This document shows, one piece after another, positions 410 to 34,345 of a DNA stretch of 38,576 nt (position 1 is its first letter; each line of letters begins with the position of its first letter). The stretch spans positions 1 through 38,576 of the forward strand of contig JWZX01003036.1 in the NCBI GenBank assembly GCA_001275005.1. The letters run 5' to 3'. This DNA comes from Chrysochromulina tobinii (lineage: Eukaryota). Both the position numbers and the translations under genes were made by a program. The notes under the pieces were generated by a model that did not search any database, was not told the DNA's origin, and was given only the letters and a program-made list of their open reading frames with translations.

Positions 410-883
410 ATGTCACAGCGAACCTATAATGCTTACTTACGCTATGAGGCCATCCGTCGCGAAGAGAGCACAAGTTCAGCCGTGAACGCGGAGGTCCTCA
501 CAAGGCCGCGCGCCGAGCTCATTATCGCAGCGGCGGCACCAGCGGCACCACCGGCACCACCGGCAGCAACGGCAGTGAGAATACCAGCGCGAGGGCGGAC
601 GGCCGCCATGGTCGCCGCTGAGCGACACGCTGAGGCTGAGAGGGCATTCGTACGGGCCAATGCGAGCATGGAGCGAGCGGAGCTCCGGCATCAATCAACT
701 GTTGTAGAGGCACGTGAGGAGCAGCAGACGCGTGAGCGAGAGCGTGTCGTCTCCGAGCAAGGTGCTGCTCGCCGCAGGCAAGCCGAGGATGCGGCAGAAG
801 CGAGCAGACAAATGTCGCTCGATCACCTGATTTCGATTTCCAAGGGCCCGGTTAGCGCGAGCATCAATGAATTCCGAAGGTGA
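410..883 (+). CDS. Hypothetical Ala/Glu/Arg-rich protein, doubtful
   Basis: Open frame from ATG 410 with coiled-coil-like composition. No recognisable domain. Confidence 0.25.
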   Translation: MSQRTYNAYLRYEAIRREESTSSAVNAEVLTRPRAELIIAAAAPAAPPAPPAATAVRIPARGRTAAMVAAERHAEAERAFVRANASMERAELRHQSTVVEAREEQQTRERERVVSEQGAARRRQAEDAAEASRQMSLDHLISISKGPVSASINEFRR

Positions 884-1108
884 CCTTCTTCTCGATCCTG
901 TTCCAAGAGTGTGTGGGGGGGGTCGGATGTGAGCGACGCGGACAAGGTGGATAAAATCCCGTTATGTGCACTTAAACAACGCATCTAGCCTGAAGTGAGC
1001 CGCCACGCCGTGAATTCACAGTGCGCGCGAGGCACTCCATGCACGCACACACGAGGAGAGCTCTCACCGTCACACACGCGCCGGTTTGGACGCCGCGCCG
1101 TGTGAGTG

Positions 1109-2279
1109 ATGACGGCCAACGCCGCCGTGCCTCTGCTCGTCCTTTTTTACGACGACAGGTACAATGAAACGCGCGATCGGCACACGATGCCCGTGTACCG
1201 CAGCCTCGACCGCGAGAACATTCCATTCCTCGTTGGCAGTCCGGAGGGTACCATCAGCGTCGGCCGGCCTGGCGACGGGCCGGCCGATCGCAAGCTGTTG
1301 CACTATCGGCCTGGACACAAGATACGATGGCTTCTCCAGGTACTGCCCACGGTGCGTTCTGAGCTTGTGCTTCTGCTCGACACCGATATCCTCTGGCTGT
1401 GCAGTGCGGCCGAGGTGATCGAGAAGCGCGTGAAGATGCTCGCGCAAAGGGAGCTGGCGGCAGCACGCACCGTCATCCTCTTCGGAGAGAAGGGCATGTG
1501 GCCGCCGTACCAGGAGTTTCGCGGCGTGCAGCTCCGCTACAATGAGACGTCGGGCTACCCGCCCGCGACAACGCGTGAGCCCTTCCGTTTCGTGAACGCC
1601 GGCGCGGCGCTCGGGCGGCCTCGCGACGTGCTCGCCATGCTCGAATGCATGCAGGCACGGTACGAGGGCTTCCCGGACGCATGCCCCGCTGGCCATGGCC
1701 CGGACGGCGAGCTGCGATATTATTCGCCCAATCGATCCTACGTGCCACCGCCGTTAATGGTGCCGAGTCGGCTGACCAAGTATCATGGGATGCGGCTGCG
1801 CGGGAGCAACTGGGGGTGGGAGCAGGGATGCTTCCACATGTACTACCTCGAGCACGTCCATGCCGAGCTCACGGCTGCGTGCCCTCCGGTCGTGCTCGAC
1901 CGCGCGGCAAGGTGTGATGGCCTCCCTGATAGCCTCCCTGATGACCTCCCTGATGGCCTCACTGATGGCCTCCTGATGATCGCCTGTGCTCGACCGCGCG
2001 GCAAGATGGCTCGTTCACCTGGCAGGTGTGGACGGTACCTCGCTGGCGCTCTCGCGCGCCGACGCCGAGCACGGGCGCCGTGGTGGGCGCCCGCGCGCGC
2101 TGCTCCTGTCGACGGGCGAGCGCCCGTGCGCGCTGCACGCCAACGGCCCTTCCAAGGCCTCGCTCAAGCCGTTGGCCGAGTGGTGGAATGGCAGTGGCGG
2201 TGTAATCCGAAAGTTCTGGCCATCTGCTGGCCGGGGACCCGTACTTTTGAAGCTCCGAGAAAGAGCGCGACGAGTATAA
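1109..2279 (+). CDS. PLOD-type (procollagen lysyl hydroxylase GT-domain-like) glycosyltransferase; exons 1109-1911 and 2006-2279
   Basis: Motifs HKIRWL, LLLDTDIL (DxD), ILFGEKGMWP, FRFVNAG and EQGCF. Removing GT-AG intron 1912-2005 joins VLDRAAR to WLVHLAG...CALHANGPSK, restoring the HxNG motif typical of this family. Confidence 0.7.
1912..2005 (+). other. GT-AG intron (94 nt) ending in a 20-bp copy of the upstream exon end
   Basis: GTGCTCGACCGCGCGGCAAG occurs at 1892-1911 and 1986-2005. The interior is reiterated TGATGGCCTCCC-like units. Removal restores the frame. Confidence 0.85.
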
Positions 2280-2440
2280 TCTTCTGTGGTGTGAGTTCAA
2301 TTTTTGCTTGCTTGGGGTGGGCTCGTTTAGAGAACCGGCGGCGGCGTCTCGCGGACTATCGGTGTCATTTTACCGGTAGGAGGGGCGCGCGCCGTGACAT
2401 GCCGTGAAATGGCCGAAACTCGCCGACCTTCGCCGACTAC

Positions 2441-5293
2441 ATGGCGGCGCCCGTCCTGAAGCCCGGCGCCGCCACCGCCCGCGCAGGCTCGCTGATTTAC
2501 CGCGACATCCACGCGCCTCGCGACTTGCTTCCCGATCTCGCCGCCGCACTGGCCAGCCACGATCGGGAGCTCATCTTGCTCACGAGCAACGACGACCAGT
2601 ATGACCTCGCAGTCAACCTGATCGCCAACCTAGCCACGTTCGGGCTGCATAACCACGTCTTGCTGACGGACAATGCGGTGCTCTCGGTGCACGCGAGTCG
2701 GCAGGGTGCCGTCGCAGCCGTGTGGAGCACGATGCTAGATAGCTACACGGAGCGACCGGCGGTCGGCCCTGACTGCCCTGCAGGCTGCCACGACCCGGAT
2801 CCGCGCACCTCCGGTCGCACACATACTCCGCTGCGATGCCGGCGCACCGCGCCCGATGCCGCATCAGCGGGCGCCGAGTCCTGCCCACCCTCGCCCGCAG
2901 CGTTTTACCGCGCGGACGCGGTGCGCCGGCTCTGGCTGATGCGCTATCACTACGCAGCGCGGCTCGTGGGCTTGCGGTACCGCGTGCTCGTGCTTGACTC
3001 GGACTCGATCGTGTTGACGAACCCGTACCCTCTGCTGCGTGCGCTCGCACACGAGGTCCGCCCCCTCGGACTCGCGGTCGGCGTGGAGGACGTAGGCGCC
3101 TGGCCCGACATGTCGATCAACGGAGGCACCTGGTATCTGAGCGCGCGGCCGGGTGGGCCGGTGCAGGACTTGTTTGCATCGGTGATGGAGCACGCGCGGC
3201 GCGTGCTCGACGCCTACCCAGCACGGCGCATTTTGGACACGAGCCCCAAGGTGCGGCGGGGCAAGGCGGCCGATTTTTTGCTCTTCGACCAGACCTTAGT
3301 CAACGTCGCCCTGCTCTCGCGATGTCTCGGGCGCCCTGTCAACCTCACCTCCTCCGAGTCCGTTCGAATGGCGACCGGGGCTGATGAGCGGCAGCGCGTT
3401 CAGTGGAAGCGCGCATGCTGCTACGCCGCACCTTCAGAGCTCGGTCACCCGCCGTGGCGCGCTGGCGACGAGGCACAGCAAAAGGGCACCGGCTTGTTGT
3501 TGTGCGGCGGCGGCGGCGGCGGCGGCAGAGGCGGCGCGAGCGGCGTCCGCGGCATGCCGGTGCACTTGCAAGGCTTCAATCCGCGGCACATTTCGGCGCT
3601 GCTCGGCGGCGGCGGCACCTCTGCCGGCTGCGATCCGAGCAGCGTGCCGTATGGTACTGCCTATGAGCTTCGGTACCACCTCCTCCGCAACCACAGCCCC
3701 GAGGAGTCGAGATCGTACCTCCCCGAGATTGCATCTCTCTCTGAGCTTGCATCTCGGGAGATTGCATCTCTCTCCGAGCTTGCATCGCGCCCGCCCACCC
3801 AACGGCCGTCGGTACCGGTACCAGTACGTGCACCCCTTGCCGGAGTTTGCGGCGAGCGTTGTGTGCCACGGGACGTCTGCGCCAGGCTGTGTGCGCGCCG
3901 GGCGGGCGCCGTCACGGTCGCAGCCGCCCAGGTGTGTGCGCGCGACAGGTCGTGTGCAAATTGGAGCCGCTTCAGCGACGAAGGTCAAGAGGCGGTGCTC
4001 AAATCGCCACCTTGGCTCTTTGCTTCGGAGAGCGATCGCGACGGCAAGAGTGGGCGTGCGCATGCCACCTTCTGGGGCGCGCGCCCACCGCCCGCCGCCA
4101 TCATTCACTTCGTCTGCTCCAGCTGGCCGGGCTCTGACGGGCGGCGCGCGGCGATGCGCCTGTGGGGGCACTGGCATGCTGCGGACGTGTATGCGGAGGC
4201 GCCCGAGAGGGGACGTGCCCTCATCGAGTTTCGTCAACGCGGGTTCGTCAGCTTCGACGCCCCGGTGGACGCGGCTCGACCGGCGGCGCTCATGCCGTAC
4301 CTGAGGCTGCTCACTCTGGTGGCGCACGCCACAGGTCGAACGCCGAGCCTACCGGTCGTGCGCTGCGACGCCGAAGGGCAGGCGTGGGTGGAGGAACGCA
4401 TCGATGCGCGCACCGGCTGGCCTACGAGCCAACGCGACGGCAAAGGCAAGGGCAGCAAAGGCAAAGGCGGCGGAGGCGGCGGTGTCAGCGGCATGGATGA
4501 TCGATCGGGCCGCGGGCGCCCCTGTGGCTGGGCGTTCCACCACATCGCTGAGCGCTCGAGCACTGTGGAACTAGAGGAGCCCCTCTGCGTGCAGCGCCCA
4601 TTGGAAGGGTGCTTCCTCGCCTTTGCGACCCCGGATGAGCTCGCACCGCACGTGCCGCTCGGATTTTGGCGACGCTTCGCCGCGCGTGGCCGCACACCAG
4701 CCAGCACACCAGCCAGCACACCAGCCAGCACACCAGCCAGCACACCAGCCAGCACACCAGCCAGCACACCAGCCAGCACACCAGCCAGCGCACAGCCGGG
4801 AGCAGTCACGGAGACAGTCCTGTCCGCCGCCACCGCCGAGGTCGAGGCGCGTCAGCACGCCACCCCCACCGTCGAGGCGGACGCACATGAGTTTCGTCGA
4901 GTTTCGTCGAGTTTCGCCAAAGGCCCACCCACCGTCGAGGCGGACGCACCGCCGCTCCTCAGCCTCTTCGACGGCGCCAACGGTCGCAACCTGACTCTTG
5001 ACGATCTCTCGCGACGCACGCGCCCATACGTGCTGCCCACGACGACGCTTCCCACGACGTTTCCCACGAGCGCAGGCGCGACCGCAGCGCGCGTGCCGCT
5101 GCTTCTGATTGGGACGCCCAGTGCGGCGCTTCTGGCTCAGCAACCGCTGCTCGAGAAAGAAAGAGTAGGCGAGGCGCTGCGCACGATCAACCGGGGCTCT
5201 CTCGTGCCCACCAACGGCCCCGCGCGCTGGGGAGCGACTTGGATGCAGTGCATGCGCATGGTGCTGAACAACAAGTGCGCCGCCGTCTGTTAG
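2441..5293 (+). CDS. Nucleotide-diphospho-sugar transferase-like (GT77-like) glycosyltransferase; may contain in-frame introns
   Basis: 950-aa ORF with LAVNLIANL, LWLMRYHYAARLVGLRYRVLVLDSDSIVLTNPY (DxD), INGGTWY, FDQTLVN and IIHF motifs. Confidence 0.65.
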   Translation: MAAPVLKPGAATARAGSLIYRDIHAPRDLLPDLAAALASHDRELILLTSNDDQYDLAVNLIANLATFGLHNHVLLTDNAVLSVHASRQGAVAAVWSTMLDSYTERPAVGPDCPAGCHDPDPRTSGRTHTPLRCRRTAPDAASAGAESCPPSPAAFYRADAVRRLWLMRYHYAARLVGLRYRVLVLDSDSIVLTNPYPLLRALAHEVRPLGLAVGVEDVGAWPDMSINGGTWYLSARPGGPVQDLFASVMEHARRVLDAYPARRILDTSPKVRRGKAADFLLFDQTLVNVALLSRCLGRPVNLTSSESVRMATGADERQRVQWKRACCYAAPSELGHPPWRAGDEAQQKGTGLLLCGGGGGGGRGGASGVRGMPVHLQGFNPRHISALLGGGGTSAGCDPSSVPYGTAYELRYHLLRNHSPEESRSYLPEIASLSELASREIASLSELASRPPTQRPSVPVPVRAPLAGVCGERCVPRDVCARLCARRAGAVTVAAAQVCARDRSCANWSRFSDEGQEAVLKSPPWLFASESDRDGKSGRAHATFWGARPPPAAIIHFVCSSWPGSDGRRAAMRLWGHWHAADVYAEAPERGRALIEFRQRGFVSFDAPVDAARPAALMPYLRLLTLVAHATGRTPSLPVVRCDAEGQAWVEERIDARTGWPTSQRDGKGKGSKGKGGGGGGVSGMDDRSGRGRPCGWAFHHIAERSSTVELEEPLCVQRPLEGCFLAFATPDELAPHVPLGFWRRFAARGRTPASTPASTPASTPASTPASTPASTPASTPASAQPGAVTETVLSAATAEVEARQHATPTVEADAHEFRRVSSSFAKGPPTVEADAPPLLSLFDGANGRNLTLDDLSRRTRPYVLPTTTLPTTFPTSAGATAARVPLLLIGTPSAALLAQQPLLEKERVGEALRTINRGSLVPTNGPARWGATWMQCMRMVLNNKCAAVC
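4694..4789 (+). repeat. 12-bp tandem repeat ACACCAGCCAGC x8, encoding (TPAS)n
   Basis: Perfect tandem array visible in the sequence. Confidence 0.95.
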
Positions 5294-5506
5294 GTTTGAA
5301 AACGGGATATTTCACTCACAGCATCATCTGTGAACGCGTAGTCGTGGTTTTCTTGGACCGGACGCGACAGACGTGTCAAGCAAAGAACGTAATCACGACA
5401 CATGCGACGCTGTGGGGGCGACGAACGAGTGTGAAAAAGCGTGTGTGAAACTGGAAAACAACGGTCGGACCCGCGCTTCGCGGCAGGTGCGCTGCGCTTC
5501 GTGTGG

Positions 5507-7804
5507 ATGCCAGCCTGGACTGGAGGGGAGACCCGAGACAAATCAGCCGAGGAGGCGATCGACTTCTCGGGGACAGAGCGCGCCTTCCTGTGCGAGCCGC
5601 TAGCCGAGGAGGCCTGCCGCAAGGCGGGCGTGCTGCTCGAGGAACTGCGCCCGCGCTCGTATGCCTCGTTCTCCGTCAAGGGCCAGGATGAGTGGCTGCA
5701 GCAGAAGCGGAGTGACGCGTACGAACAGAGGCGGCAGTTCAAGTGGCGACTCGTGCGTGAGCAGCACGCTCGCCTTGAGGCGGAGGACGCCAAGCGTCGG
5801 ACCCTGAAGGCCATCGAGGCCAGTGCCGGCGCTGCGGCTGGAGGTGCGAGCGTGGCGCAGCGGCAGCACGAGGCGGCGCTGAAGATCGTGGTGGAGCGGC
5901 AGACGCGCCTTCTCGAGAATGAGCTGCGTTCCGAGGCGCAGCGCCAGCGCATCGAGCGCAAGCAGGAGGCGGCGGCACAGGCGCGCGCCGAGTCGGCGAA
6001 CGAGCGCTCACGGGCAATCGAGGCGGCGAGGAGCAGCCGAGAGCTCATGTACGAGGTGCGCGGCGCGCGGCGCGAACTTGAGGATCGGCTCGGGCAGCCG
6101 ACGCCGCGCCCGGCGCGCCCGGCCTCAGCGCCGCACGCGCGGCCATCGAGCGGCGGCATCGGCTGCGGCGGCGGCGGCAGCGGCAGCGCGCGGAGCGCGA
6201 CGGGCGAGGCGGTCCGGCAGCGTGAGGAGGCGCAGCGCAAGCAGCAGCGCGCCATGGTGGAGGCGAAGATGGCGGCCAAGGAGGCGAGCACGGCGCGCCG
6301 ACGGGAGGCCGTTGCGACTGAGCGTGAGGTGCGCCGCCTCTACGCGGAGCAGATGAGGTTACGTCATGAAGAGCGCAAGGCGGCTTGCGAGCTGCAGGTG
6401 ATGCAATCGAAGATGCGCACGATGCGCGAGCTGCTCGACAAGCAGGAGAAGGCGCAGCATGAGCGTGATCGGCGCAACGCGGCCATCAAGAACGGCGAGG
6501 GGATCCTAGGGTCCTTGGTACGCAGTGCATCCGACGGCGCCCTCGGCGGCGGCTACGGGGGCCGTAGTGGCTACGGCGACGGCGGCTACGGCAGCGACGG
6601 CGGCGCGGGTGCCGGCGGCGAGGAGAATGCTCAGAACTCGCGCCAGGCGCGGGAGGAGAAGCGTAAGAATGTGGCCGCACGCCTGCAGCAAGCGCACGAG
6701 CGCCTGGCACACAAGCAGAAGCAGCAGCAAGAGGAGTTTGCTCTCAAGGAGAAGAAGGCCGACATGGCGCGTGCGCTCGCGGCGCAGGCGGCCGAGGCGG
6801 CGCGGCAGCAGGCGGCCGCCAGGCAGTTCGAGCACGAGCAGCGGAGCCAAGCGGCCGCCCTCGCCGCCGACCTCGCCCTCGAAGCGAAGCGCGCCAAGGT
6901 GCAGAGTGCCGCGGAACTGCAGGCGAGGCGTACGGAGGATTCGAAGAAACGGGTCGACGAGGAGCGAAGGCGCAAGCGGATCGAGGCGGAGGTGAGGGAG
7001 GAGGCGCAGCGCGAGAATGCCGAGCGCGTGCGCCGCGCTGAGCAGTACCGGATCAAGGAGACTGAGCGTTCGATTGAAGACAAGGACAGGCGTTACGACG
7101 AGAAGCGTCAGAATGCGGAGCAGCAGCAGAAGATGCGGCTCGCGTACCAGATCGCACGGGCGAAACAGGAGGAGGCCCTGCAGGCGAAGCTCAATGCGCG
7201 CGCGCACCAGGAGCTGCAGAGTTTAGGCAGCGCGCGTGCGACGCCCGCCGCGCTTGCGACGGCGCTCGAGGCGTACGAGCCTGTGAGGCACGAGCCGCCG
7301 CCGCCGCGAATGCGCCCGCGAGGACGCGAGGGCAGGCGCGACGCTGGCGGCGGCGGCGGCGAGGGCGACGGGGCTGGAGGGGGCGAGGCGGCGGTGCTCG
7401 AGACGGCGCGCGATGGGCGGCGGAGGCGCCGCGAGGCCAGCTCGGAGGCGGCAGAGCCGGCGCTCGCGACGGCGCCCCACGGCGACACGCGTGCTGACAG
7501 CGCCGCCGCGACGGCCGACGGCGGGTACGGGCGCAGCACGCAGCAGTTGAAGGCCTATGCCGCCATCGAGAGGCTGCGCGCTCGCCAGAACGCCGAGCTG
7601 CGCGCGGCCGTTGAGGCTGAGCAGCTCAAGGAGGCTGAGCGCGCACGCATCCTCGAGGCCACAGCCGACGGCGCCGACAAGACGCGCTTGCTCAAGCTGC
7701 TCAAGCTCGAGCGCGAGCGAGCCGACTCGGAGCTCATGGCGCTCACCGCCGAGCACGAGCTGGCCCTCGCGGAGCAATTCGCGAAGCTCGGGGTCACGCG
7801 CTGA
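5507..7804 (+). CDS. Long charged coiled-coil protein; N-terminus weakly resembles CCDC177-like proteins
   Basis: Uninterrupted E/R/K/Q/A-rich ORF with N-terminal EEACRKAGVLLEELRPRS motif. First in-frame ATG is 5507; the true start is uncertain. Confidence 0.7.
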   Translation: MPAWTGGETRDKSAEEAIDFSGTERAFLCEPLAEEACRKAGVLLEELRPRSYASFSVKGQDEWLQQKRSDAYEQRRQFKWRLVREQHARLEAEDAKRRTLKAIEASAGAAAGGASVAQRQHEAALKIVVERQTRLLENELRSEAQRQRIERKQEAAAQARAESANERSRAIEAARSSRELMYEVRGARRELEDRLGQPTPRPARPASAPHARPSSGGIGCGGGGSGSARSATGEAVRQREEAQRKQQRAMVEAKMAAKEASTARRREAVATEREVRRLYAEQMRLRHEERKAACELQVMQSKMRTMRELLDKQEKAQHERDRRNAAIKNGEGILGSLVRSASDGALGGGYGGRSGYGDGGYGSDGGAGAGGEENAQNSRQAREEKRKNVAARLQQAHERLAHKQKQQQEEFALKEKKADMARALAAQAAEAARQQAAARQFEHEQRSQAAALAADLALEAKRAKVQSAAELQARRTEDSKKRVDEERRRKRIEAEVREEAQRENAERVRRAEQYRIKETERSIEDKDRRYDEKRQNAEQQQKMRLAYQIARAKQEEALQAKLNARAHQELQSLGSARATPAALATALEAYEPVRHEPPPPRMRPRGREGRRDAGGGGGEGDGAGGGEAAVLETARDGRRRRREASSEAAEPALATAPHGDTRADSAAATADGGYGRSTQQLKAYAAIERLRARQNAELRAAVEAEQLKEAERARILEATADGADKTRLLKLLKLERERADSELMALTAEHELALAEQFAKLGVTR

Positions 7805-8772
7805 GGGGCAGCCCTCGGGAGTGAGGGGAGACATAAATATGTCACCGTCTCGCGGACGAATCTGGGATCCAGATCCTCAGGTGGGAGGGCGCTCAGGTAA
7901 CGCCTCGCCACGACATTAAGGTAGTCCGCTTATGTTGTACATGGGGCGAAACCTGTGATCTCCAAAAAAACTGTCTGACACTTAAGGGGATTATGGAAGA
8001 AACCGCTCGAGCAAGAGGGAAGAGGTGTTCCGCCCGTGTGGTGCTCCCGCGTTCTTGGCAATGGCATTCGACATTGATGATGTGATGCGTCGATCATGAT
8101 TGAAAAAGTCAAAGTGGTCTTCCGAGTTCGTCCGTGTACAATTGTACCGTGATTCTTCGGAGTGACGGTGCTGAGTTGTGCGTGAGTGAGTGCGGGACTA
8201 TAGCCTCCTCCTGGGGCTACTTGTAGTCTGTTCACATGAACGACGCCGCGGTTTGGCAAGTCGCGTGGAGGAAAAGCGCCCCGCGAGTCGTCCTCTTCGC
8301 TCTTCGTGCTCCGTCGCTCTTCGTGCTCAACGTGCGTCGGTGCGATCGCTGCACGTGCGCACTGTGCCGCCTTCGCACGCGGAATCGATCGAGTCCGCTC
8401 AGGTGCTTTCCTCTATGGTGCCCCGCGGGCAATCCTGCATCTCCGGAGGGAGCACATATCGCGTCTCCCCAGGCGCCGCCTCCTTCCTCTCCACTCCCGC
8501 GCGCTTCACTGCCATGTGACTGCCCAATCCTGAGACCCCGAGCTGGGCTGCTTCTCTCGAGGGCATGCGACTTTCCGTTCGCGATGAGCTTCGGAGCCAC
8601 ATACGCGCACGCGAGTCCCCTCATCCTTGCGGCACGCTGTTGGCTGCTGCATATCTGCGCCGAGACACGTCAAGCGCCCTTCAAGCTTGCAGCCGCTTGT
8701 GTGCCCATATCTCTATGCTGCCGAATCTCGCATGCAGCCTAATCCTCTCTATACTTCTCTCTTGTTCGCAGG

Positions 8773-9838
8773 ATGGTCGCGATGCTCATCAACTTTGTAG
8801 CGGAGAAGACGGATGCGCACAGCGACGGGATCAGGTCGGTGGCGTTTTCCCCAGACGGGACGAAGATTGTGTCTGGATCGGTCGACAAGACGATCAAAGT
8901 CTGGGATTCCGGTGCGCTTTTGCCCTCAAATCGCCCCTCCTCTTGGCCAAACTGATGCCTGCTGGCTTGTCTGGCAGGCAAACTGGAGCTGATGAGCGAG
9001 AAGACGAACGCGCACAGCGAATGGATCTCGTCGGTGGCGTTTTCCCCAGACGGGACCAAGATCGTGTCGGGATCGGGCGACAAGACCATCAAAGTCTGGG
9101 AGTCTGGTGCGCCGCGAACTCAAATCACGCCCCTCCTTGGCCAAAACTGATCCCTGCTGGCTTGTCTGGCAGGCAAGCTGGAGCTGATGAGCGAGAAGAC
9201 GACCGCCCACAGCGACACCATCGGGTCGGTGGCATTTTCCCCGGACGGGACCAAGATTGTGTCCGGATCGGACGACGGGACGATTAAAGTCTGGGATTCG
9301 GGTGCGCCGCGAGCCCTCAAATCGCCCTCCTTGGCCAAAACTGAACCCTGCTGGCTTGTCTGGCAGACAAACTGGAGCTGTTGAGCGAGAAGACCAATGC
9401 CCACAGCCACTTTGTCATGTCGGTGGCGTTTTCCCCGGACGGGACCAAGATTGTGTCCGGATCGGCTGATGGGACGATCAAAGTCTGGGATTTGGGTGCG
9501 CTGAGCCCTCACAATCGCCCCTCCTTGGCCAAAACTGATGCTTGCTGGCTTGTCTGGCAGGCAAGCTGGAGCTGATGAGCGAGAAGACGAATGCGCACAG
9601 CGACTACATCAACTCGGTCGCGTTTTCCCCGGACGGGACCAAGATCATCACCGGATCGGACGACAAGACGATTAAAGTCTGGGATATCATCAATTGGTCT
9701 CGCAAAGATCACTTGATGTTCAACGTTACCACCCAGCGATTTGTCTTGCAGATGCTGTGGCTGAACAAATACATAATGAAGTTTCCTGATGATGTGATTG
9801 ATCTGCTCATCGAAGCTTGCTTGCCGAAGCAGGTGTGA
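8773..9838 (+). CDS. WD40-repeat protein with five repeats; exons 8773-8911, 8978-9106, 9173-9301, 9367-9495, 9561-9838
   Basis: Five [30 protein letters not shown][DE] repeats separated by four near-identical phase-1 GTGCGC...CTGGCAG introns. An acceptor-like TTGTTCGCAG ending at 8771 suggests an additional upstream exon. Confidence 0.9.
8912..9560 (+). repeat. Tandem exon+intron units of about 195 bp; introns at 8912-8977, 9107-9172, 9302-9366, 9496-9560
   Basis: The introns are 65-66 nt and share CCTCC..TTGGCCAAA(A)CTGA...TGCTGGCTTGTCTGGCAG. Internal exons are exactly 129 nt. Confidence 0.9.
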
Positions 9839-10637
9839 GGTGAGGCGGGATGTCGGTAACCGTGCCGTGCATTGTTTGTTTTAGCTCAAAACTGTCAGAA
9901 TCGAACGTGGAAATCCCATTCTGCATACTCTAGTTCACAAACCAGCCCATAACCAGCCCAAAACTTACAATTTTACTAGACAAAAGTCAAAACCCTCTAA
10001 TTTCGCACAGAAAGCACGCACGACGCGTGCGGGATTGGGGATATTTGTCCCATGATTTGTCCACTTCTTTGTGGTAAAGGCTGCGAAACTGCGTTCGGTA
10101 AATTCGGTCAGCGTTCACTGTCGGTGCAGCGTGGAGATAGATCCAGAATTCATATGGATGGGTAGGGCCAAGAAGAAAAAGACCTTCCTAATTTGTGATG
10201 AAAGGCTGCTGCAAAATGAAAGGCGGCAACTCTGCAACTCTGTCATCATCTACTTCAGAAGCCAGCATCGTACGCCACCCGCACGTTTTTTGCAGTGGGG
10301 AAATCGTCTCTCGCGATGGGACCACACTGGTTCCTGGCGTCTCGCCTGGGTCCTCGGCTGCCCCTGGTCTCGGCGTCTGTCGTCGCGATGCCTGACGACG
10401 ACCAGCTTTCAGATCTAGCCAGCGTGCAGATCCGCTCGCATCCACATCTCGCGCAGATCCGCTCGCGCAGTCACCATGGCCACCGTGCGGCCACCGTAAC
10501 CTGAATCACTCCAGGCGGCTGCCAAGCTGCCGTGCGCCACGACACCGTCGTCTCTCGACGCCGCCGTCGTCACGCGACGGCGGCATCGAGTGACTTCTTT
10601 TGCGTTCCCTTCGGGGGGCGCGCCAACGGGCGCGTCT

Positions 10638-10812
10638 CTACACCTCCGACTCCCACTGCGACGACCCCGGCGCCCGTGCGCAGACTGCATCTACGGCACC
10701 GACTGCGCCGACTGCGGCCCGCGCTTTCCGCCTCCTCCGCCCATCTGCGCCGAGACGTGCAACTGGGCTTCCGACGCCGATTGCGACGGCGGCGGCCCCG
10801 GCTCGGAGTTCC
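10638..10812 (+). pseudogene. Degenerate fragment of a Cys-rich extracellular repeat (CDDGGPGSE...C.YGTDCADCGPR type)
   Basis: YTSDSHCDDPG in one frame, then CADCIYGTDCADCGPRFPPPPPICAETCNWASDADCDGGGPGSEF in another. No complete ORF surrounds it. Confidence 0.5.
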
Positions 10813-11226
10813 GCCCGGCCCCAGGCCGACGGCATGTGGACCGGACCAATCGTCACATGTAGTAAAGGTTGCAGACAGTGTGTACGTCCTGTACATAACC
10901 AGTCCAAGAACAAAAGTTCTCAAGTAAGAGCTACTCACCACCGAAACGAAAACGACAAACGCGGGTGGGGAAGCCGGCGGTAGCTCTCTCAACATGATGT
11001 TATTATTATTTGTTCATGTATTATTTGTTGTATGCATGGTTGTATGTTGATGAAGGCGTCACGACTGCCGAAACAATGTGGTACATGTACAGCCCTCTCG
11101 CAGTCGCGCCAAAGTCGCGCGCGCGCATGATGGTTACGAGTGAATTCACGAAAGTTGGCCCCACGGGTCCGTCTAGTGGTATACAGAACAGGACCTGACT
11201 TGCAGACGTGTGCACAGGCCCGCAGC

Positions 11227-12612
11227 ATGTCGTGTCCGGACACTGCCATGTGCAGACTCCGCACACGACTAGCGGCAATCGACAATGCGTGCGCGCGTCG
11301 GGAGGTACATTGCACGTGGGGTGAATCATCCTCTCGTTGCTGCATCCACAGCTGTCGGGGGCGCGGTGCTTGCGTGAATGGCTCCTGCCAGTGCGACACC
11401 GGTTTCAGTGGGGTCGACTGCAGCATGAGTGCCGACGCCCCTCACTGTCCCAATGGGGCACCACAGCCGCGTGGTATCTTCATCGGCGAGGAGGGACTTC
11501 ATGCAACAGGCGGATCGAGCACCATGAGCCCGGCACGCTTCGGCTATGCCCATGAATGCAAGGGTACTCCAATCACGACGTTGGAGCCATCACTGAACGG
11601 CATATACGCTCCAATAGACATCTTCTTGCTTCGCCTTCTCTCGGACCACACCTTCCGTTCCCTTTCGAGGTCGTGTGCACAGGCAGAGTGGCACCCGATG
11701 TATGCACGCCGCATCTACCACAACACTGACCTCGTCAGCAAGTGGAGCATCCGAGCAGTGCTTCGCCAACGAAGGCAGAGCAGGGGTGCCCCGATGCTCC
11801 CCTGGATCCACGAGGACCACTCTGATGTGGGCTCATGCGGCGAGCCGCTGGATCACTTTACGGAGGGAGATATACTGCTCACCTATTGGGGCCATGTGGC
11901 TTGCAAGCCGCCGAACGTCTTCCTCGTTGTGGTCCCTGGCGGCACACGCCACAGCCTCGTGTTGAACCGAACCGAGCATCGGTGGACGAGCATGCACCCT
12001 GAGCTTGTCACGTGGGCGCGCCGAGTGTACTCCCCTGCTCACTTGCATGCGCCGCGCCGGCCGGTGCTATACTTCCAAGGCTCCACCCGCGAGGCTGGCG
12101 CGAGCGCCGACGTGGTCAGCAGATGCTTCTTTCCTCACAACCGGAGCAAGGGGTGTGGTCAAGGGGTCTACTCACTTGGGATACGGCAAGCGGTGCGTCG
12201 GACCATCGGCAGCGACGCCCGCGTGGTCTTCAACGTTGGCAAGACTGGGGGTTACCTGACCACTCTGTCTCAGACAGAGTTCTGCCTGACTGCACCGGGC
12301 TTCGGGTTTGGAGTCCGCATCATCGACTACGTCGCGACGGGCTGCTTACCGGTCATCGTCCGAGTCGAGCCGCAAGTGCTCTTGCCTCTGGAGCCCGACC
12401 TCGACTACTCTGCGTTCGCTGTGAGCATACCGTTTGCAGCGATCGGAGCCCTTCCTGAGATTCTCGCCAACATGAGCTCCACCGAGATCCGCCGGAAGCG
12501 TGAGGCGTTACGGGATGTGCATAAACAGTTCATCTGGGACGAGGGGTACGGTCAGGCGTACGAAGCGGTGCTGGGCGCGCTGCAGCGCCGGCTTTCCCGC
12601 CGCCACACATGA
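11227..12612 (+). CDS. Exostosin-family (GT47) glycosyltransferase with EGF-like domain; 5' end uncertain
   Basis: EGF-like CRGRGACVNGSCQCDTGFSGVDCS. GT47 motifs RPVLYFQGS, YSLGIRQ, FCLTAPGFGFGVRIIDYVATGCLPVIV and LPLEPDLDYSAFAV. Confidence 0.85.
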   Translation: MSCPDTAMCRLRTRLAAIDNACARREVHCTWGESSSRCCIHSCRGRGACVNGSCQCDTGFSGVDCSMSADAPHCPNGAPQPRGIFIGEEGLHATGGSSTMSPARFGYAHECKGTPITTLEPSLNGIYAPIDIFLLRLLSDHTFRSLSRSCAQAEWHPMYARRIYHNTDLVSKWSIRAVLRQRRQSRGAPMLPWIHEDHSDVGSCGEPLDHFTEGDILLTYWGHVACKPPNVFLVVVPGGTRHSLVLNRTEHRWTSMHPELVTWARRVYSPAHLHAPRRPVLYFQGSTREAGASADVVSRCFFPHNRSKGCGQGVYSLGIRQAVRRTIGSDARVVFNVGKTGGYLTTLSQTEFCLTAPGFGFGVRIIDYVATGCLPVIVRVEPQVLLPLEPDLDYSAFAVSIPFAAIGALPEILANMSSTEIRRKREALRDVHKQFIWDEGYGQAYEAVLGALQRRLSRRHT

Positions 12613-12865
12613 AGCCTTGAAGTAGGTTCATAGAATATCACAGACCATAGGCGTATAGTATAGGGCACACGGTAATAGAGATAGTACCTTATAGGCGTCG
12701 TCGGGCATCTGTCGTACAATGTATAGGTCCAGGTCGGTAGCGGCAAGCGCGGGTAGGACACCAGTAGCAGTACCAGGTAGGACTCGAATAACAGTATCAG
12801 CGTAGGACCCCGCTCGGTGAAGAACGGCGACCCCCCGTTTTCTGGTTCACAGGGGGTGAGAGAGC

Positions 12866-14598
12866 ATGAAAGATCTAAGGACTCACCTCTTCCTCGCCGT
12901 CCTCGTCCTGGCCTCCACGCCCGTGTCCGGCGTCTTGCCGAGGCCGCAGCAGCAAACAGACTCGGGAGATGTGTTCTCACTCGGCGAAGAGTTTCAGTTT
13001 CTCGCCGTTGGTGTGCATTCGACGCCCATGCTTCAGAATGCATTCGATCGCTATCGCGCCATCATCTTCCAGCGGCGCAAGCCGGACGGTGCTGCGCCTG
13101 CACTGAGCACAATAACAGGCTGCGACGTGAACGTGACGTCGGATGTGCAAGTCAAGACGCTCACGACGGATGAGTCGTACGAGCTGCATGTCCGAGCGCC
13201 TCGCCTGTTCGTGCGCGCTGCGACCGTCTTCGGAGCCTTGTACGCACTCGAGACGTTCAGTCAGCTCGTTCGCTCCGATTTGTCCATCGATGGCACCGTG
13301 ATCACCGACAAGCCGCGCTTTGCCTACCGTGGCACCATGATCGATACGTCCCGGCACTTTTATCCGGTCACGTCTATCAAGATGCACATCGACGCGATGG
13401 CGTACGCAAAGATGAACGTGCTCCACTGGCACATCGTGGACGAAATCAGTTTCCCGTACGAGTCCGTCGTGCTGCCACAAATGAGTCTCGACGGCGCCTT
13501 CAGCCCCAAGCACGTCTACTCGATCGCGGCCATTCGGGAGATCGTCGAGTACGCGATGCTGCGCGGCGTGAGGGTGATTCCGGAGTTTGACACGCCCGGT
13601 CACGTGAGCCGAGGCTGGGGCTCTCTCGGCGTGCTCACCCAATGCTACGACGTCAAGACGGGCGCGCCGACCAACTTCGGAGCCCTCAACCCGACGTTGA
13701 ACCAAACCTACGCGGTGCTCAGCACCCTCCTCGCCGAGGTCAGGGACGTGTTTGCACCCGAGGCGTACATCCACGTGGGCGGCGATGAGGTTCCTAAGGA
13801 GTGCTGGCAGTCCAACCCGCAAATTGCGTCCTGGCTGCATGAGCACCCGAGTGTGAAGGACTTTGCCGGGCTCGAAACCTACTTTGAGCAGCGGCTGCTC
13901 GCACTGCTCAAAGCGCAGGGCTCGTCGTACATCGTCTGGCAGGAGATCTTCGACAACGGTGTTGAGATCTTGCCAGATACCGTGATCGAGGTGTGGAAGG
14001 GGAGCCCAGGATTGTCTGTGATCACCTCTCATGGCCTCTGATCTCATCTGATTGCCTCGCTCATCAGGTGTGGAAGGGAGGCCACGGAGGCGACCAATGG
14101 CTCTGGCAGACCGAGATGGCGAAGGTGACTGGCGCTGGCTTCAAGAGCGTGCTGTCCGCGCCGTACTACCTCAACTACATCGCCTATGGGGCCGATTGGA
14201 TCAATTACTACTCGATCGAGCCGGCTAACTTTACGGGCGGCGCCGCCGCCGAGTCCAACGGCCTCATCGCCGGGCTTGAGGCCTGCTTCTGGTCAGAGTA
14301 CATTGATGCCACCAACCTCGCTTCTCGCGCATGGCCGCGGGCGGCGGCCGTCGCTGAACGGGCGTGGTCGGCTGAAACCGTGACGAACCTGACGGATGCG
14401 GAACGTCGGCTGCACGAGTGGCGATGCATGCTACTGACTCGTGGCATCAATGCGGAGCCGATCGGCACCTGCTCGGTGAACGCTCAACGCGTTGGCGGGC
14501 CGACGTTGCAGCAGTGGTGCCAATACCAAGTGCCTGGGTACGGTGGCTACTGCGCGGAAGAATGGGATCCCGTGTACAGCGCGCCGTGGGACCGATAA
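12866..14598 (+). CDS. Secreted beta-hexosaminidase (GH20); exons 12866-13990 and 14068-14598
   Basis: Signal peptide. Motifs DKPRFAYRGTMIDTSRHF, KMNVLHWHIVD, RVIPEFDTPGH, catalytic HVGGDEV, EACFWSEYID and WPRAAAVAERAWS. The intron restores the frame. Confidence 0.93.
13991..14067 (+). other. GT-AG intron (77 nt) bracketed by 13-bp direct repeat AGGTGTGGAAGGG
   Basis: Repeat at 13989-14001 and 14066-14078. The 3' end is CTGATTGCCTCGCTCATCAG. Removal gives VIE|VWKGG. Confidence 0.9.
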
Positions 14599-15255
14599 GC
14601 TGCTGTGGTGCTGCCGTGGCCGATACGCCCTATAGCTTTGCGCGGCCACCACCAACTACATGTATGGTCAAGAGCAATTGTTCCTTAGAGCGAGAGAACA
14701 TCATAGAAAATAGACGCAAGCGGTGTGCGCGCGCCGGGATGCTTGGTTAGCGATTCGGCGTGAACCGTTGTGTGCGACCCCGCGTGCTGCGTGGTGAGGG
14801 CACGGCTTTTCAGATTTCGCGATTCGCGACGTAGTCTTTTGTTATGATTATTGTTAAATTAACGACGAACGTAACTCGGCCGGCGGGCCGCGGGACCAGA
14901 GCCCCGGGCGAAGCCGAGATGCGGCCGAGCGCGGCAGCAAAATTAATACCGCATCGCGGTCCACAGACGTGCGCGCGTCCCCCGCGCCCAGGACCCCCAG
15001 ACGCTCGGTCTGGCAGGACGACCACACCTGGCCATGCACCTGGTACACAGAGAACACACGCACACACACCAACGCAAACCGCGTCGGTTGTACCGTCCGC
15101 GAGAGACACGACCCCAAAGTCATACGTGGTATCGAAGTAGCTGTCACCTGCCCCTCGCCATGCCGGCTCGTGATGCACTCCGAGATTACTCCGAGATTAC
15201 TCCGAGATGCCACCGTACGGTCGCTCTCTCCTCCTTGGAGTGCTCAACACGGCGC

Positions 15256-18200
15256 TCAAGAGAGCACAAGGTCGGCCATCTGCAGCCCGACATGCATGTC
15301 CTCCTCCTCCTCGTCGTCGTCCTCGTCCTCGGTGCTCGATGTGTCGCCCTCCTCCTCCTCCGCCAACGCCGGCCGGGCGCCATGATGGGCGCTCGACATG
15401 GCGCTCGGGTCCCCTCGAGTGCGTGCGCCCACGACGGCCACCCGCACTGCGGGGTCTGCTCGAATCAGCGCGCCCAACGGCTGCGCCCCGTCGGGGCTGC
15501 CCGCGCTGTGTTGAGCACCAACAACCGCCGGGCCGCCGTCGCCGCCGCCGCCGCCAAGAACTCCAGCGCCCCCATCGTACAGGAGCGTCGCGTCCTCAGC
15601 ATGTCTCTCAGTACCTGTAGGCCTCGAGCTGCCGGGCTCGGGCCGCGGGCGCGGCGGCGTGAACGGCCGTTTCGGGTCGAGGACCCAATTGTGCTCGGCG
15701 GCGGCGGCACGCCCCCGTGCACGCAGAACCTGTGGGCAAGTGGATGGGGCGTCGTGGTGAGCACTAGTGAGCACTTGCATGCACGAGGGGGAGAGCGGCA
15801 CGCCCGCGTGCATGCAGAACCTTGGGGAAGACGTGGAGCTCGCGGCTCATGACGACCATCGCCGCGTCGTTCTTGTGATGGCCGCCGTAATCGGGCGCCG
15901 AGAAGACGGTTAGAATGCGCCCGCCTGCACACCTGCCATCACCAAGGGAAGCAGGCGAGATCACGGCGAGATCACGAAGGTCGTTTGGCGCACTCAGTCG
16001 CACTCAGTCGCACTCAGTCGCAATCAGTCGCAATCAGTCGCACTCAGTCGCACTCAGTCGCACTCAGTCGCACTCAGTCGCACTCAGTCGCACGCGCACC
16101 ACTCGAAGCCGTCCTGGACGCACTGGTGGGCGCGCAGGATGAGCTTGAGCCCATTAGCCGCGCAAAAGGCGCGTACGCGGTCGGGCGCGAAGGCGACCGT
16201 ATTGGGACCTGTGGGGAGAGGGTGCAGGGCGCGGTGAGGAGCACTTGCATGCAAGCGTAGGGTCTCGAGCGCGTTCGACTCGATCGTATTGGGACCCCGC
16301 GAATTCGGATGGCAGCCGACAAGACCGTCTGAGTCTGTTGGATCGGACCAAAGGATCTGATATGGGAAGCACTCAGTGACCAGTCAGTACTGATGAGGAA
16401 ATCACTCAGTGGCCAGTAAGTACTGGGCGATAACTGCTGGCAAGTTGTGCACCATCAGAGGGGCAATCAGTGACTCACCTCGTTGAGCACGTTCCGTTGC
16501 GACAAGTTCACACTCACGGGGCGCGGCAGCTCGCGGAGCTGATCGAGGTTCTGAAGCGACTCGCCTATGCCCCCATGCACAGCAAGCACCACATCGTCAA
16601 TGAGCGCCGCCACGGGCATCATCTCGAACACCTGGTTGATGGCAGTCCACACGTGCGCGCCGTCGCGGCAGCGGCGCATACACTCCTGGCGGAAACCGTA
16701 GTGAGCGTTCACTTGCGGGTCCTCGTGGTTGCCTCGCAGCAACGTGACCCTCGACGGATGGCAGATCTTGAGTGCAAGTAGCAACGCCACCACCTCCAGC
16801 GAGTGCTTGCCACGGTCGACATAGTCACCGAGGAACAGATACGAGCAGTAGTCCACGTCGCCCGTGTATGCATTCGGCGAGCCAAACGCGGCAAAGAATC
16901 GCTGCAAATCTCCAAACTGGCCGTGCAAGTCTCCAAAGATCTTGAGCGGGGCTTTGAGCGGCACGAGCGATGAAGTCGTCCACATGCGTCGCTCGAGGCA
17001 GAGCTTGCACATGATGAGCAGCTCGGCATCTGTGCACACGTACTCGAGTGAGCCTTCGCCCATTCCGCAGCGCTCGAGCGCCGCCGCGTCCCACCCGCCG
17101 AGCAGCAGTGTGTCACACACGCGCTTGGCCACGTCCTTCCCAGGGGCGGGAGAGGGCGGCGCCAACCACGATCTCGCATGCATCTCGACCTGCCGCTTTT
17201 GGATCGCCGCGTCCGTCGGATCGATGTCGACAGAGGTCTGCCGTTGCAGCCCAGTCGGAGCCGCCGCCCTGCCCAGGAGACCTTTGGGGCTAGCCGACGA
17301 GAGAGACCGGTAGGTCATCGGCGCCTCGAGGACGACCTTCTTAAAGGCAAAGCGCACCTCACCGCCCGGCGACGGCGGCGGCTCGCCACCGCCGCGCCGC
17401 CGCCTCGCGCTCAGCAAAGGGCCCTGCGCACCCTCCACAGCGCCGCCCACGACAGCGCCGCCCACGACAGCGCCGCCCACGACAACGCCGCCCACGACAG
17501 CGCCACCCACGACAGCGCACGTGGATGCATGCATGCTCGGGCCGAGGTTGAGCGCCGTACCGGGCAGCGGCGGGTTCATGCCGCCGGCATGTGGCGGCGA
17601 GTCAGGCGCACTCACCTGATGAGGGAAGCAATCATTTTGATGAGGGAGGCAATCAGGGCGGCAATCAGCATGTGGCGGCGAGTCAGGCGCACTCACCTGA
17701 TGAGGGAAGCAATCATTTTGATGAGGGAGGCAATCAGGGCGGCAATCAGCATGTGGCGGCGAGTCAGGCGCACTCACCTGATGAGGGAAGCAATCAGTCT
17801 GATGAGGGAGGCAATCAGGGCGGCAATCAGCATGTGGCGGCGAGTCAGGCGCACTCACCTGATGAGGGAGGCAAGCAGCCTGATGAGGGAGGCAATCAAG
17901 TCGGCAATCAGCATGTGGCGCACTCACCGATAGAGACGGCCTCGAGGCACGTGAGGAAGCACGCACGGGGGTGCCCTTGCCCAAGGCCGACGTAGCCGTA
18001 TCGGAAGCGTCCTCCGCCGACGCCGCCGTCACTGCCACCGCTGTCGCTGTCGCTGTCGGAGCCTGCTGTGAAGCCTGCTGTGAAGCATGCTCACGTTCCC
18101 GATAGGGCGAGGCGGTGCGTGAGCTGTCCGGGCATGAGGCCTTCGGCTTCATCAGCCGGGTAGGGGGCGAGAGCGGCGAGCGGCTGGCGCTCCCTGGGCC

Positions 18201-21069: not shown

Positions 21070-21252
21070 GTGAGAAAAAGCATCGATCCCACTGTCAGCC
21101 TTTCATGTGTGTGTTTTTGATCAGGTCGTCCCTTTTTCTCAGCATGCAAGAGTTGCCTCAAACACCCTTTTTCGTCTTATTGCCTAAAACGGATCTCTTT
21201 TGTTTTTCAGAGGGAGGCCTTGTGAGGCCTCTCTTCGTCCTCAGCGTGCGGC

Positions 21253-24200: not shown

Positions 24201-25363
24201 CGCGTCCGGCGTCCAGATCACGGCAGTGTCGCCCTTGTACATGTACAACGCGCAGCAGGATGTCTTGCCGCAACAAGGCTACCCGCCACCTCCGACACCG
24301 CCTTCACCGCCATCATCGCTGCCTGCTCCATCACCACCCCTCTCGCCATCGCCGGCATCGTCACTGAGCTGGAACGATGCTATCCGCGACTGGAGGCTAG
24401 CTGACAAGGTCATGAAGCTTCCCGCCAACAACCGGGGCATCCCAGACAACGTGAGCGAGAACGACAAGGAATGGCAAGCCAGCATCCCTACTCTCGACAG
24501 GACGATGGCACCACCGTCGCAGCAGGGAGGCAAGCCAGAGCAGGGAGGCATGCCAGAGCAGGGAGGCAAGCCAGAGCAGGGAGGCATGCCAGAGCAGGGA
24601 GGCAAGCCAGAGAAGGGAGGCATGCCAGAGCAGGGAGGCATGCCAGAGAAGGGAGGCATGCCAGAGCAGGGAGGCAAGCCAGAGCAAGGAGGCAAGCCAG
24701 AGCAGGGAGGCATGCCAGAGCAAGGCTACCCGACACAGCAGCAGCAGCAGCAGGAGGGCCACTTGCCACAGGAGGGAGGCACGCCGCCGCAGCAGGGTGT
24801 GCCCCCCGCCGCAGCAGGATGTGCCCCCGCCGCAGCGCGACGTGCCCCCGCCGCAGCAGGACGTGCCCCCGCCGCAGCAGCAGGCCCACCCGCCACAGAA
24901 TTCGCCTGACCCGACCGAGGTCAACTCACCGGCCACGGTCGACGAGCCACCGGCCAGGGCCGATGAGCCGCCCGCCGAGGATACCCCGAGGGCAGAGTCA
25001 TGCGAAGACACGAAGGACGTGCCGTGCGCTTCGTTGGCCGCTATTGGCGAGTGCCAACGCATCCCAGTGTTTATGCACTCGACGTGCGCCTTGTCGTGCG
25101 GCTGCCCCGCGCCTGCTTCCTCCGAGGAGCTCCTACGGCGCGAAAGGGCCGACCAGGCTATTCTGGACCAAGCCAGGCTGAGTCGGCTCTGGGAGGAGGA
25201 TCCACCCTTGGCTCGGGGGCATTCGTCCTCAGCGGGACGGAGGCGTCCAGAGGACGTCGCGGTGGTGTCGGCCGAGGCATTAGCAGGGCTTGCCCCTTCC
25301 GAGCGTCGAAGGATAAGTCGGCTGTGGAAGCAAACGGGTGCGCTTTCGGCGCTTGTGCCATAG
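21253..25363 (+). CDS. Secreted mosaic protein: ShK-like domain, five 6-Cys repeats, Pro-rich linkers, sulfotransferase-like domain, PEQGG repeats, and a second ShK-like domain after an apparent frameshift at 24802-24807
   Basis: ORF 21253-24909 plus overlapping ORF to 25363. ShK-like CALWATQGECEHIPVFMHSNCAASC and CASLAAIGECQRIPVFMHSTCALSC. HGSGTSDL...LNTHPC...EPF resembles a sulfotransferase PAPS-binding loop. Confidence 0.75.
24521..24726 (+). repeat. 18-bp coding minisatellite, about 11 copies, encoding PE(Q/K)GG(K/M)
   Basis: CCAGAGCAGGGAGGCAWG units visible in the sequence. Confidence 0.95.
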
Positions 25364-27976: not shown

Positions 27977-29017
27977 ATCTCGGCTCGTTGGTAGCCCGAG
28001 AAAGAACGTACCATCGAAAGAACGTACCCAGCCATCGTAATTGTGTAACAGTCATTCAAATCAAAGTTGTTGTTTCGGCGGATCCTCCCTGTTGCTCGGG
28101 TAGCGACAAGCGAGCCTCGGCGCCGGTCGGCCGTCGCGGCCCGCGCCAAACGTAAGAAATATTCATTTTTCGAGCGGGCGCAGGGCACACATGCATATCC
28201 CACCGCGGAAAGCGCTCCACCGCGCACAGTTTTGACTCCAGCGCACGAAGAGAGTCCCAGACGCGTTCACACTTCACAGAGCCAATGCCTATAGCGGAAC
28301 CAGGGGATACAACTCGACACCCAAAGACACCGAGCTGGCGTACCCATGAATGCGCGAGACAAGGTGCGGACTTCCTCGGCACTTGTCTGTGAACGTAAAG
28401 CAAAAACCGCCTCATCGTACATCGAGCTTCTACCTGTGGCAATGACCTGAGGCTCCACGAACATGGCAAGTACATGACACATGAGTTATCGGGACGCGTG
28501 CTCGTGTGCTCTCATAGATGCCGCTGTGTGTAGCTTCGGGCGACACACTTGTAGCTTCGGGCCGTTCGACTTGCAAGCTCCGATTCGTCAGCGTCCCGAT
28601 CGATTGCTCGAAGCGCTCCGTCACTTTCGGTGCCCTCATGAGCCCAACGGCCGTGCACGCCTTCCGAATCCATGCGGTCGACTAGTAACCGCACTAGCCG
28701 GCGCCCCACAGGCACCGCGCAGTGTGAGACCGGAGCGCGTCAGGACCGTCTGTCCGTCTCTCGTCTGGTCGATCGTCTGGTCTCTCGTCTCAACACGGCC
28801 GCGGGGAAGGCCGCGGTTGGACGGCGGTTTTGGCAATTTGGGGGCCGTAGGAAGGCGCTCACGGACTGTGTTCCCTAGACCTACTTTTGCGCGCCTGCGT
28901 GTCTACATACCCTCGTGCGCACTCTAGAGCCCGCCTCGCGCATACCTGGTTTGATCTCATTTTAAAAGAGCGCTACCTCCAGAGGGCTATACCCATGCCC
29001 GGCCGGCGGAGTTGCAC

Positions 29018-34276: not shown

Positions 34277-34345
<69 letters not shown>

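Follow-up and report, generated by a model that had tools for sequence, protein, structure and literature searches.

Spliceosomal introns of Chrysochromulina tobinii that combine a duplicated exon site with the copied 3' end of an existing intron

Background

The origin of new spliceosomal introns is a long-open question, and most large-scale gains have been credited to transposons. Introners (Gozashti et al. 2022, PMC9860276, 10.1101/2022.06.06.494994; 2024, 10.1101/2024.06.04.597373) are described as related introns at unrelated, gene-enriched sites, which carry one splice site, obtain the other from a duplication of the target and are removed exactly; in the one published from a Chrysochromulina sp. 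the target duplication measures 4 bp, the element brings its own 5' site, and the 3' site is recruited (PMC9860276). Here, a family of introns filled with a short reiterated word was analysed in a stretch of 38,576 nucleotides (nt) from Chrysochromulina tobinii (assembly GCA_001275005.1, contig JWZX01003036.1, positions 1 to 38,576; 'the window', to which coordinates refer unless a locus is named). This family shares the general properties of introners listed above and differs from them in that its target duplicate is 8-55 nt long, the 3' site is usually the one carried, no element recurs from end to end, and the donors are ordinary introns with pieces of exon attached. Many of its members consist of an exon duplicate and a copied intron tail, and splicing was seen for several; one site shows a recent gain, tails were copied at microhomologies both in cis and in trans, and the filler expanded afterwards.

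Families in the 2022 survey had to be similar as far as the intron boundaries, and those of low complexity were filtered out (PMC9860276), so that families such as that of C. tobinii are discarded by surveys of this kind; in the portion of the supplementary material covered, C. tobinii was found in the input list only, and the motifs of the family were not found there (PMC9860276). About 72% of the families in the 2024 survey are unclassified, and haptophytes are unnamed in its main text (10.1101/2024.06.04.597373). The available text of the C. tobin genome paper mentions introns once, at approximately one per gene (PMC4580454). No published description of the family was found, and the supplements and sequence files of the 2024 survey may list it. 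The proliferation of introns from traceable donors is real and active, and apparently undescribed.

Break repair with direct repeats and template switching by a reverse transcriptase (RT) are both reviewed proposals for intron gain, the latter being cited with indirect evidence (PMC3443670). Introns gained by break repair resemble those of C. tobinii in their flanking direct repeats, polymorphic presence and filler between the repeats, but in the review's account the repeats were short, with one mitochondrial source, whereas the C. tobinii filler is a traceable copy of an intron 3' end and occurs at many loci (PMC3443670). Fungal introner-like elements and sister (stw)introns (Fekete et al. 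2021, PMC8469720) likewise proliferate without a transposase, with repair and RNA models proposed, but are reported to insert seamlessly, without target duplication, and to have long inverted repeats, in contrast to the long duplicates of C. tobinii and a conserved 20-nt end with just a 5-bp self-complementary end. Reverse splicing yields whole introns without duplication, whereas partial copies, long duplicates and microhomology to the donor exon are found in C. tobinii. RT template-switching and intron-transposition models resemble the mechanism proposed below in RNA-level copying of an intron to a new exon position and in homologous introns at unrelated sites. A reverse-transcription template-switching model was reportedly put forward by Roy and Irimia in 2009. 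C. tobinii is in culture and its genome has been assembled, and the sequence itself reveals the donor intron, the insertion site, the two junctions and alleles that lack the intron; template-switching and break-repair models can therefore be tested directly against each other.

Anatomy of the introns across loci

The family was characterised in a wider sample of at least 136 loci (80 with flanks of up to 2.5 kb) from one metagenome scan anchored on an exact 20-nt sequence (20-mer), CTGATTGCCTCCCTCATCAG. Out of 399 acceptor-like matches, 157 distinct terminal acceptors were retained after internal units, duplicates and contig edges had been dropped. The introns ended in this fixed branch-point/acceptor 20-mer, preceded by mostly 10-nt repeats. 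The adenosine of its CTGAT, 17 nt before the intron end, fits the YTRAY motif and is the candidate that we take to be the branch point. Altogether, 80 of the 157 introns (or last units) started with a copy of the beginning of the next exon, compared with 1.4% and 2.8% in controls; these duplicates were 8-55 nt long, with a median of 23 nt, and half of them (40 of 80) were free of mismatches. The exon after the acceptor began with GT in 112 and with GC in 25 of the 157 cases, and an intron that opens with a copy of the exon start therefore obtains its GT/GC donor from the duplicate, while the copied tail supplies the branch point and the acceptor. Splicing of such an intron restores the old message, and coding phase was best with the unit removed in 38 of 53 cases that could be assessed (one third expected).

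Similar introns were thus present at many unrelated positions (157 acceptors), as introners are, without similarity from boundary to boundary: units were 42-202 nt long with only the 3' 20-mer constant, the 3' length shared between loci had a median of 20 nt, and the 5' part was derived from the site. A reading of the window made from the sequence alone (the sequence-only reading) had argued against transposition of a fixed element, which these figures bear out; it had overlooked the exon duplicates in three of its four introns. Duplicates of 8-55 nt and an inserted unit without inverted ends do not fit a terminal-inverted-repeat DNA transposon or a miniature inverted-repeat element, and transposition by reverse splicing, in which a whole intron is inserted seamlessly and without target duplication, does not fit the long duplicates at 80 of 157 acceptors and the common partial copies. 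What was found is the fixed 3' end, 5' truncation and variable target duplication of retroelements without long terminal repeats (non-LTR), such as short interspersed elements (SINEs). Target-primed insertion produces just such a geometry: a fixed 3' end, a variable 5' end, target duplications of variable length and microhomology on the 5' side. Duplicate lengths clustered weakly near 19, 28 and 39 nt; the corresponding periodicity of approximately 10 nt (p~0.03, the best of 7 periods, uncorrected) was not used. The exon-duplicate build was also found in 12 of 19 sites (one an internal artefact) of a second family of 3' ends, with core GCATGCAAGTGCTC and end CCCCACAG.

Source of the filler

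Within a locus, the 3' filler common to two introns was longer than between loci (99 pairs; p=0.0008 by permutation), a result repeated with 82 pairs from a 115-acceptor subset derived from large-contig assemblies (p=0.0002). Two introns of locus L026 with ends at 245 and 3113, 2.9 kb apart and at non-matching exon sites, have 104 nt in common, including a head that matches the exon of the donor only. From L074 to L134, which lie in different genes (by eye PIWI-like and gamma-tubulin-complex-like), 61 nt were transferred with 1 mismatch, and 9 nt of the L074 exon copy stand behind a 7-nt internal microhomology. The whole intron of L110 (75 nt, 2 mismatches) recurs at L051 between unrelated exons, and the agreement of its 20-nt head is complete with the L110 exon and reaches 12 nt with the L051 exon. 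L106 and L057 form a weaker fourth pair, as donor and recipient, respectively. The direction of transfer can be read in three pairs because the recipient holds part of the exon-derived duplicate of the donor.

In these pairs, together with L094 and L108, the starts of the exons matched for 4, 3, 12, 5, 6 and 7 nt, while in random pairs matches of at least 4 nt were seen in 10.6% and of at least 7 nt in 0.5%. This excess indicates that the template included the 3' exon of the donor, and therefore that it was DNA or unspliced RNA rather than a free lariat. Microhomology at the 5' junction amounted to 1.17 versus 0.32 nt in the 18 of 80 cases in which scoring was possible. Junction microhomology with an identifiable template, as in microhomology repair, was present. 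The linkers between tandem 20-mers were 1-3 nt long, and their 21 contexts were mostly fixed within a locus and matched the end of the preceding word; end-to-end jumping with addition of random untemplated bases was rejected on account of this locus-fixed pattern. The filler is inherited by copying and then locally expanded; it is not a fixed transposon, and it is not newly synthesised on a master template. The proposal of the sequence-only reading that the filler arose by reiterative copying of a short template was not supported, as 61-104 nt of existing introns were copied nearly letter for letter, an exon-derived piece was copied too, linkers were mostly locus-fixed, and alleles differed in copy number.

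Word enrichment, splicing and recency in the window

The word TGAT[TG]GCCTC occurred 8 times in exact form in the window, versus 0.07 expected from 30 dinucleotide shuffles, and 27 times with at most one mismatch, versus 5.3 expected. When the 27 were placed against 13 listed introns (1,770 nt in total), 20 lay in introns on the sense strand, none in introns on the antisense strand and 7, roughly the chance count, outside introns, which upheld the expected concentration of the word in sense-strand introns. The further claim that the word always lies on the sense strand held in the window, with exceptions at other loci (L108 and L112, see below). The word length had been read as 11-12 nt; across loci, however, 10 nt was the commonest spacing (200 of 401), followed by 11 nt (63) and 12 nt (33). 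That helical or nucleosome effects lie behind the 10-11-nt period is a guess.

Four introns, hosted by a PLOD-GT-like gene, a GH20 hexosaminidase and an EF-hand phosphoesterase, had been derived from this one word. All four have GT..AG ends, and exact words number 3 in 1912-2005, 1 in 13991-14067, 0 in 16357-16478 and 4 in 17616-17927. The intron at 16357-16478 holds only two one-mismatch words and no exon duplicate and is therefore a loose member, to which the claim does not extend well.

The intron at 1912-2005 (+ strand, 94 nt, frameshifting if retained) is of a mirror type, in which the filler gives the GT donor and a duplicate of the upstream exon end gives the AG acceptor: the 20-nt exon end at 1892-1911 (+) is copied exactly at 1986-2005, and an array of 5.4 copies of a 12-nt word occupies 1915-1978 (+). 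Excision restores a PLOD-GT-like protein of 358 amino acids. Across 4 RNA runs, at low depth, no contig joined the flanking exons, an absence that was weighed neither for nor against the intron, and one contig reads 42 nt into it; its support consists of frame restoration and homologues. Protein P0186, which agrees with the spliced window protein at 354/358 positions (98.9%) and occurs on contigs of up to 10.6 kb, is uninterrupted at this site, and the intron is likewise absent from P0185 and P0199 (93% identical, contigs up to 16 and 34 kb, respectively) and from P0158 (about 60% identical, contigs up to 35 kb), being missing in relatives at about 60-68% protein identity. The 20-nt duplicate is exact and distant relatives lack the intron, so that sequence comparison favours a gain rather than a loss in the other alleles. 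Recent gain and precise removal, which characterise introners, were both found, removal being judged by coding phase (38 of 53, above) and gain by presence and absence at this one site. The alleles that carry the intron (P0180 and P0181) differ in the number and variants of the word, as do alleles of the hexosaminidase intron (P0127 versus P0136); since filler copy number differs between alleles of one insertion, reiteration continues after insertion.

The beta-hexosaminidase gene intron at 13991-14067 (+) contains degenerate words, opens with an exact 11-nt duplicate of the next exon start (13991-14001 = 14068-14078, +) and closes with the terminal 20-mer in a form with one mismatch (14048-14067, +). 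An RNA contig joins across it and a DNA contig does not, and the spliced gene (12866-14598) translates to a product identical to P0128, a Chrysochromulina tobinii protein by its NCBI name; a C. parva protein falls in the cluster of another window gene. The intron at 16357-16478 (-), in which 33 nt are tandemly duplicated and two degenerate words occur, is probably an older family member. Two RNA contigs join across it and three further introns (16209-16295, 15933-16099 and 15730-15820), and the exon sequence hidden in these joins totals 173 nt, as in the intron model, an agreement that covers the middle three introns as a sum. Removal of GT/GC..AG introns from RNA was therefore found for 13991-14067 and 16357-16478, and was absent in the DNA run. 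Runs X20-X22 contained almost none of the words and were left out of the comparison. Among the neighbouring introns, 15933-16099 (-) contains a related 10-nt word repeated 10.5 times and is joined in RNA, while three belong to the second 3'-end family: 16209-16295 (-), with an exact 11-nt duplicate of the next exon start and an RNA join; 15730-15820 (-), with an imperfect duplicate (~25 nt), across which RNA contigs skip 91 nt; and 33115-33212 (-), with an imperfect duplicate (~24 nt), which is known from sequence alone.

At 17616-17927 (-), four intron units of 69, 81, 81 and 81 nt (312 nt in total, in frame) stand head to tail, each comprising a duplicate of the next exon start (with a GTGAGT donor), words and an acceptor, so that at every junction AG is directly followed by GT. 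The duplicated 29-nt exon start (17587-17615, -) heads units 2-4 and, in a form lacking 12 internal nt, also unit 1; its last five bases are the same as the start of the filler. RNA contigs in 3 of 3 RNA runs depart from the genome at 17917, the point where the first unit diverges from the exon, and a DNA contig continues through 17840; at least the first unit is therefore removed (full removal was not seen). Three units are present at this position in P0121 and P0122, from two other assemblies, which may reflect allelic variation or assembly collapse. Stacks of this type can be accounted for by slippage, by unequal exchange among the duplicates or by successive events at the same site. Units stacked AG to GT, here and at L009, L014, L082 and many other loci, are candidates for recursive splicing. 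For annotation the family is a hazard, as unspliced filler is often in frame and appears as spurious repeats in predicted proteins. In public protein collections, P0121, P0122, P0146 and P0138 contain unspliced filler translated as repeats such as DCLPHQ.

Position and orientation of copies

Of 148 sequences that follow an acceptor, a codon model scored 129 as sense coding, 9 as antisense and 10 as neither, compared with 707, 277 and 539, respectively, of 1,523 flank tiles. The same classifier called 14 of 123 of its own training-exon tiles 'neither', a rate that the acceptors did not exceed, and chose the correct strand in 67 of 70 held-out 180-nt tiles. Word clusters near the anchor were on the anchor strand in 102 cases and on the opposite strand in 7. 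Copies lay almost exclusively within genes and in sense orientation, unlike those of a non-LTR element or SINE, which would be left in intergenic DNA and in both orientations; two clear inverted copies were seen, both inside genes. Untargeted insertion would be expected to deposit copies in neutral DNA in larger numbers than in exons, since a copy in an exon survives only when it can be spliced perfectly. DNA depth over the filler was 800-11,000 versus 48 alongside, which is not a copy number and nevertheless implies that near-identical copies are numerous.

Mechanism and alternative explanations

New introns of this family were very probably copied from existing introns by template switching, whether the template was RNA or DNA. 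For the more specific proposal, in which the 3' part of an existing intron is copied behind a variable duplicate of the new exon site by a template-switching reverse transcriptase, we consider the chances about even; the RNA step is proposed mainly because copies are scarce in non-coding sequence. The polymerase would first copy the recipient's transcript from the 3' side, exit where the exon resembles the start of the donor's 3' exon, copy back through the acceptor of the donor and its branch point on unspliced donor RNA, and rejoin the recipient at a second microhomology 8-55 nt downstream of the exit point. The product would enter the gene by recombination or RNA-templated repair, selection would retain the exactly spliced products (those in which the duplicate begins with GT or GC, or ends with AG as at 1912-2005), and slippage and unequal exchange would later multiply the branch-point word and whole units. 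Since each event includes the 3' end, a single branch/acceptor sequence would spread as a copy chain without a master element.

A bolder version, to which we give somewhat less than even chances, is an ongoing transposon-free chain reaction in which a template-switching reverse transcriptase can copy the 3' end of any intron from unspliced RNA to a new exon site, so that introns beget introns across genes, with an immortal branch/acceptor lineage and with stacks of zero-exon introns, built up by repeated events at a site, that would undergo recursive splicing. Such a chain reaction may be the origin of 10-11-nt intron repeats in haptophytes generally. Repeats of 10-11 bp in introns of Emiliania huxleyi were reportedly described by Read and colleagues in 2013, as a genome feature without an intron-gain mechanism; they are alike in being short, helical-turn-length repeats in haptophyte introns. 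Neither a master locus, a small RNA nor a reverse transcriptase, which the sequence-only reading had proposed to look for, was found within the ~0.4 Mb examined. The window gave no match to Rfam families, and exact matches to the 20-mer numbered 0 in viral contigs and 0 in prokaryote genomes.

Several observations weigh against the RT proposal or against parts of the evidence for it. A crude pattern scan detected no RT-like motif in the long open reading frames (ORFs) of the window or the 136 loci, and RT-based models of intron gain face a rate paradox, as noted in the review by Yenerall and Zhou (PMC3443670). The donor-recipient pairs were chosen by eye after noisy screens, most of the 86 hits of the donor screen were artefacts (two mis-bounded duplicates, units of one array), which were dropped, further pairs may have escaped notice, and at L134 the unit received from L074 joined an intron already in place, which shows copying and not gain. 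No duplicate was found at 77 of the 157 acceptors, 10 of which had a partial unanchored match. The absence of intron 1912-2005 was read from uninterrupted protein calls on contigs (up to 10.6-35 kb) that are presumed to be DNA, and the codon model was trained on 8 window genes. Finally, the filler of a neighbour lies inverted within an open frame of the other strand at ~300-365 of L108, at ~250-440 of L112 (L112/L001) a sense intron of a gene that is filamin-like by eye contains an inverted foreign intron, and L056 is a possible further inverted copy; such copies suit DNA-level switching better than an RNA route.

Mainly because of these inverted copies, copying at the DNA level was kept as an alternative, which is possible and less likely than the RT route. 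A staggered break with 3' overhangs of 8-55 nt would be filled by microhomology-primed synthesis on a nearby or ectopic intron, through polymerase-theta-type templated insertion or fork template switching, and spliceable products would be selected. DNA repair accounts for the variable duplicate, both microhomologies, the bias towards donors in cis and the inversions in L108 and L112, and direct and inverted templated insertions, paired-nick tandem duplications and ectopic donors are all described by Hanscom and McVey (PMC7407515). It also predicts many neutral intergenic copies in both orientations, however, and while 35% of flank tiles were non-coding, such sequence followed at most 7% of acceptors, so that breaks confined to transcribed DNA, or fast deletion of intergenic copies, would have to be assumed in addition.

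A non-autonomous retroelement or introner (SINE-like, target-primed and 5'-truncated), whose 3' end happens by chance to contain a branch point and an acceptor, is improbable. The family does show the target-primed geometry, and the depth over the filler implies numerous near-identical copies. Recipients, however, carry pieces of the exons of other genes, and ordinary introns therefore serve as donors; a shared 5' body is limited to ~30 nt, the same behaviour is seen with two or more unrelated 3' ends, and intergenic copies are almost lacking. More doubtful still is the de novo production of filler by reiterative copying of a short template, either telomerase-like or by end-to-end jumping on a small RNA: it would explain the vocabulary of 10-12-nt words common to the loci and the tandem full 20-mers with 1-3-nt linkers, but conflicts with the locus-fixed linkers, the fillers passed intact from donor to recipient, the allelic differences that arose after insertion and the lack of an Rfam match in the window. 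Least probable of all are old introns with a strong branch/acceptor consensus, in which slippage and tandem duplications across the 3' splice site mimic target duplication, for this explains multi-unit arrays (17616-17927), units added at existing introns and members without duplicates (16357-16478) and is partly true of the word, but not of the introns, of which at least one is recent, 1912-2005 having no counterpart in near-identical alleles or in relatives of 61-68% identity, most duplicates following exon sequence rather than an older acceptor, and whole introns having moved between unrelated genes.

Other repeats in the window

An 18-nt repeat with core GAGATTGCATCT at 3719-3786 (+), inside a long ORF (2441-5293), may represent a third filler type within an unrecognised intron. 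A WD40-like gene at ~8803-9685 (+) consists of 4.5 copies of a 194-nt unit, and an identical short intron, in which the family word is absent, is duplicated with every repeat. Adjacent paralogous genes with cysteine-rich repeats occupy ~21250-25360 and 26020-27980 (+); the first has no Pfam match and an apparent frame shift near 24780-24900. GA-rich tandem repeats with strong strand skew were present at 30182-30698, in a 4.6-kb gene-free stretch, and the long intron of an RRM-like gene at 34035-34496 (-) is full of CAG/CTG microsatellite tracts.

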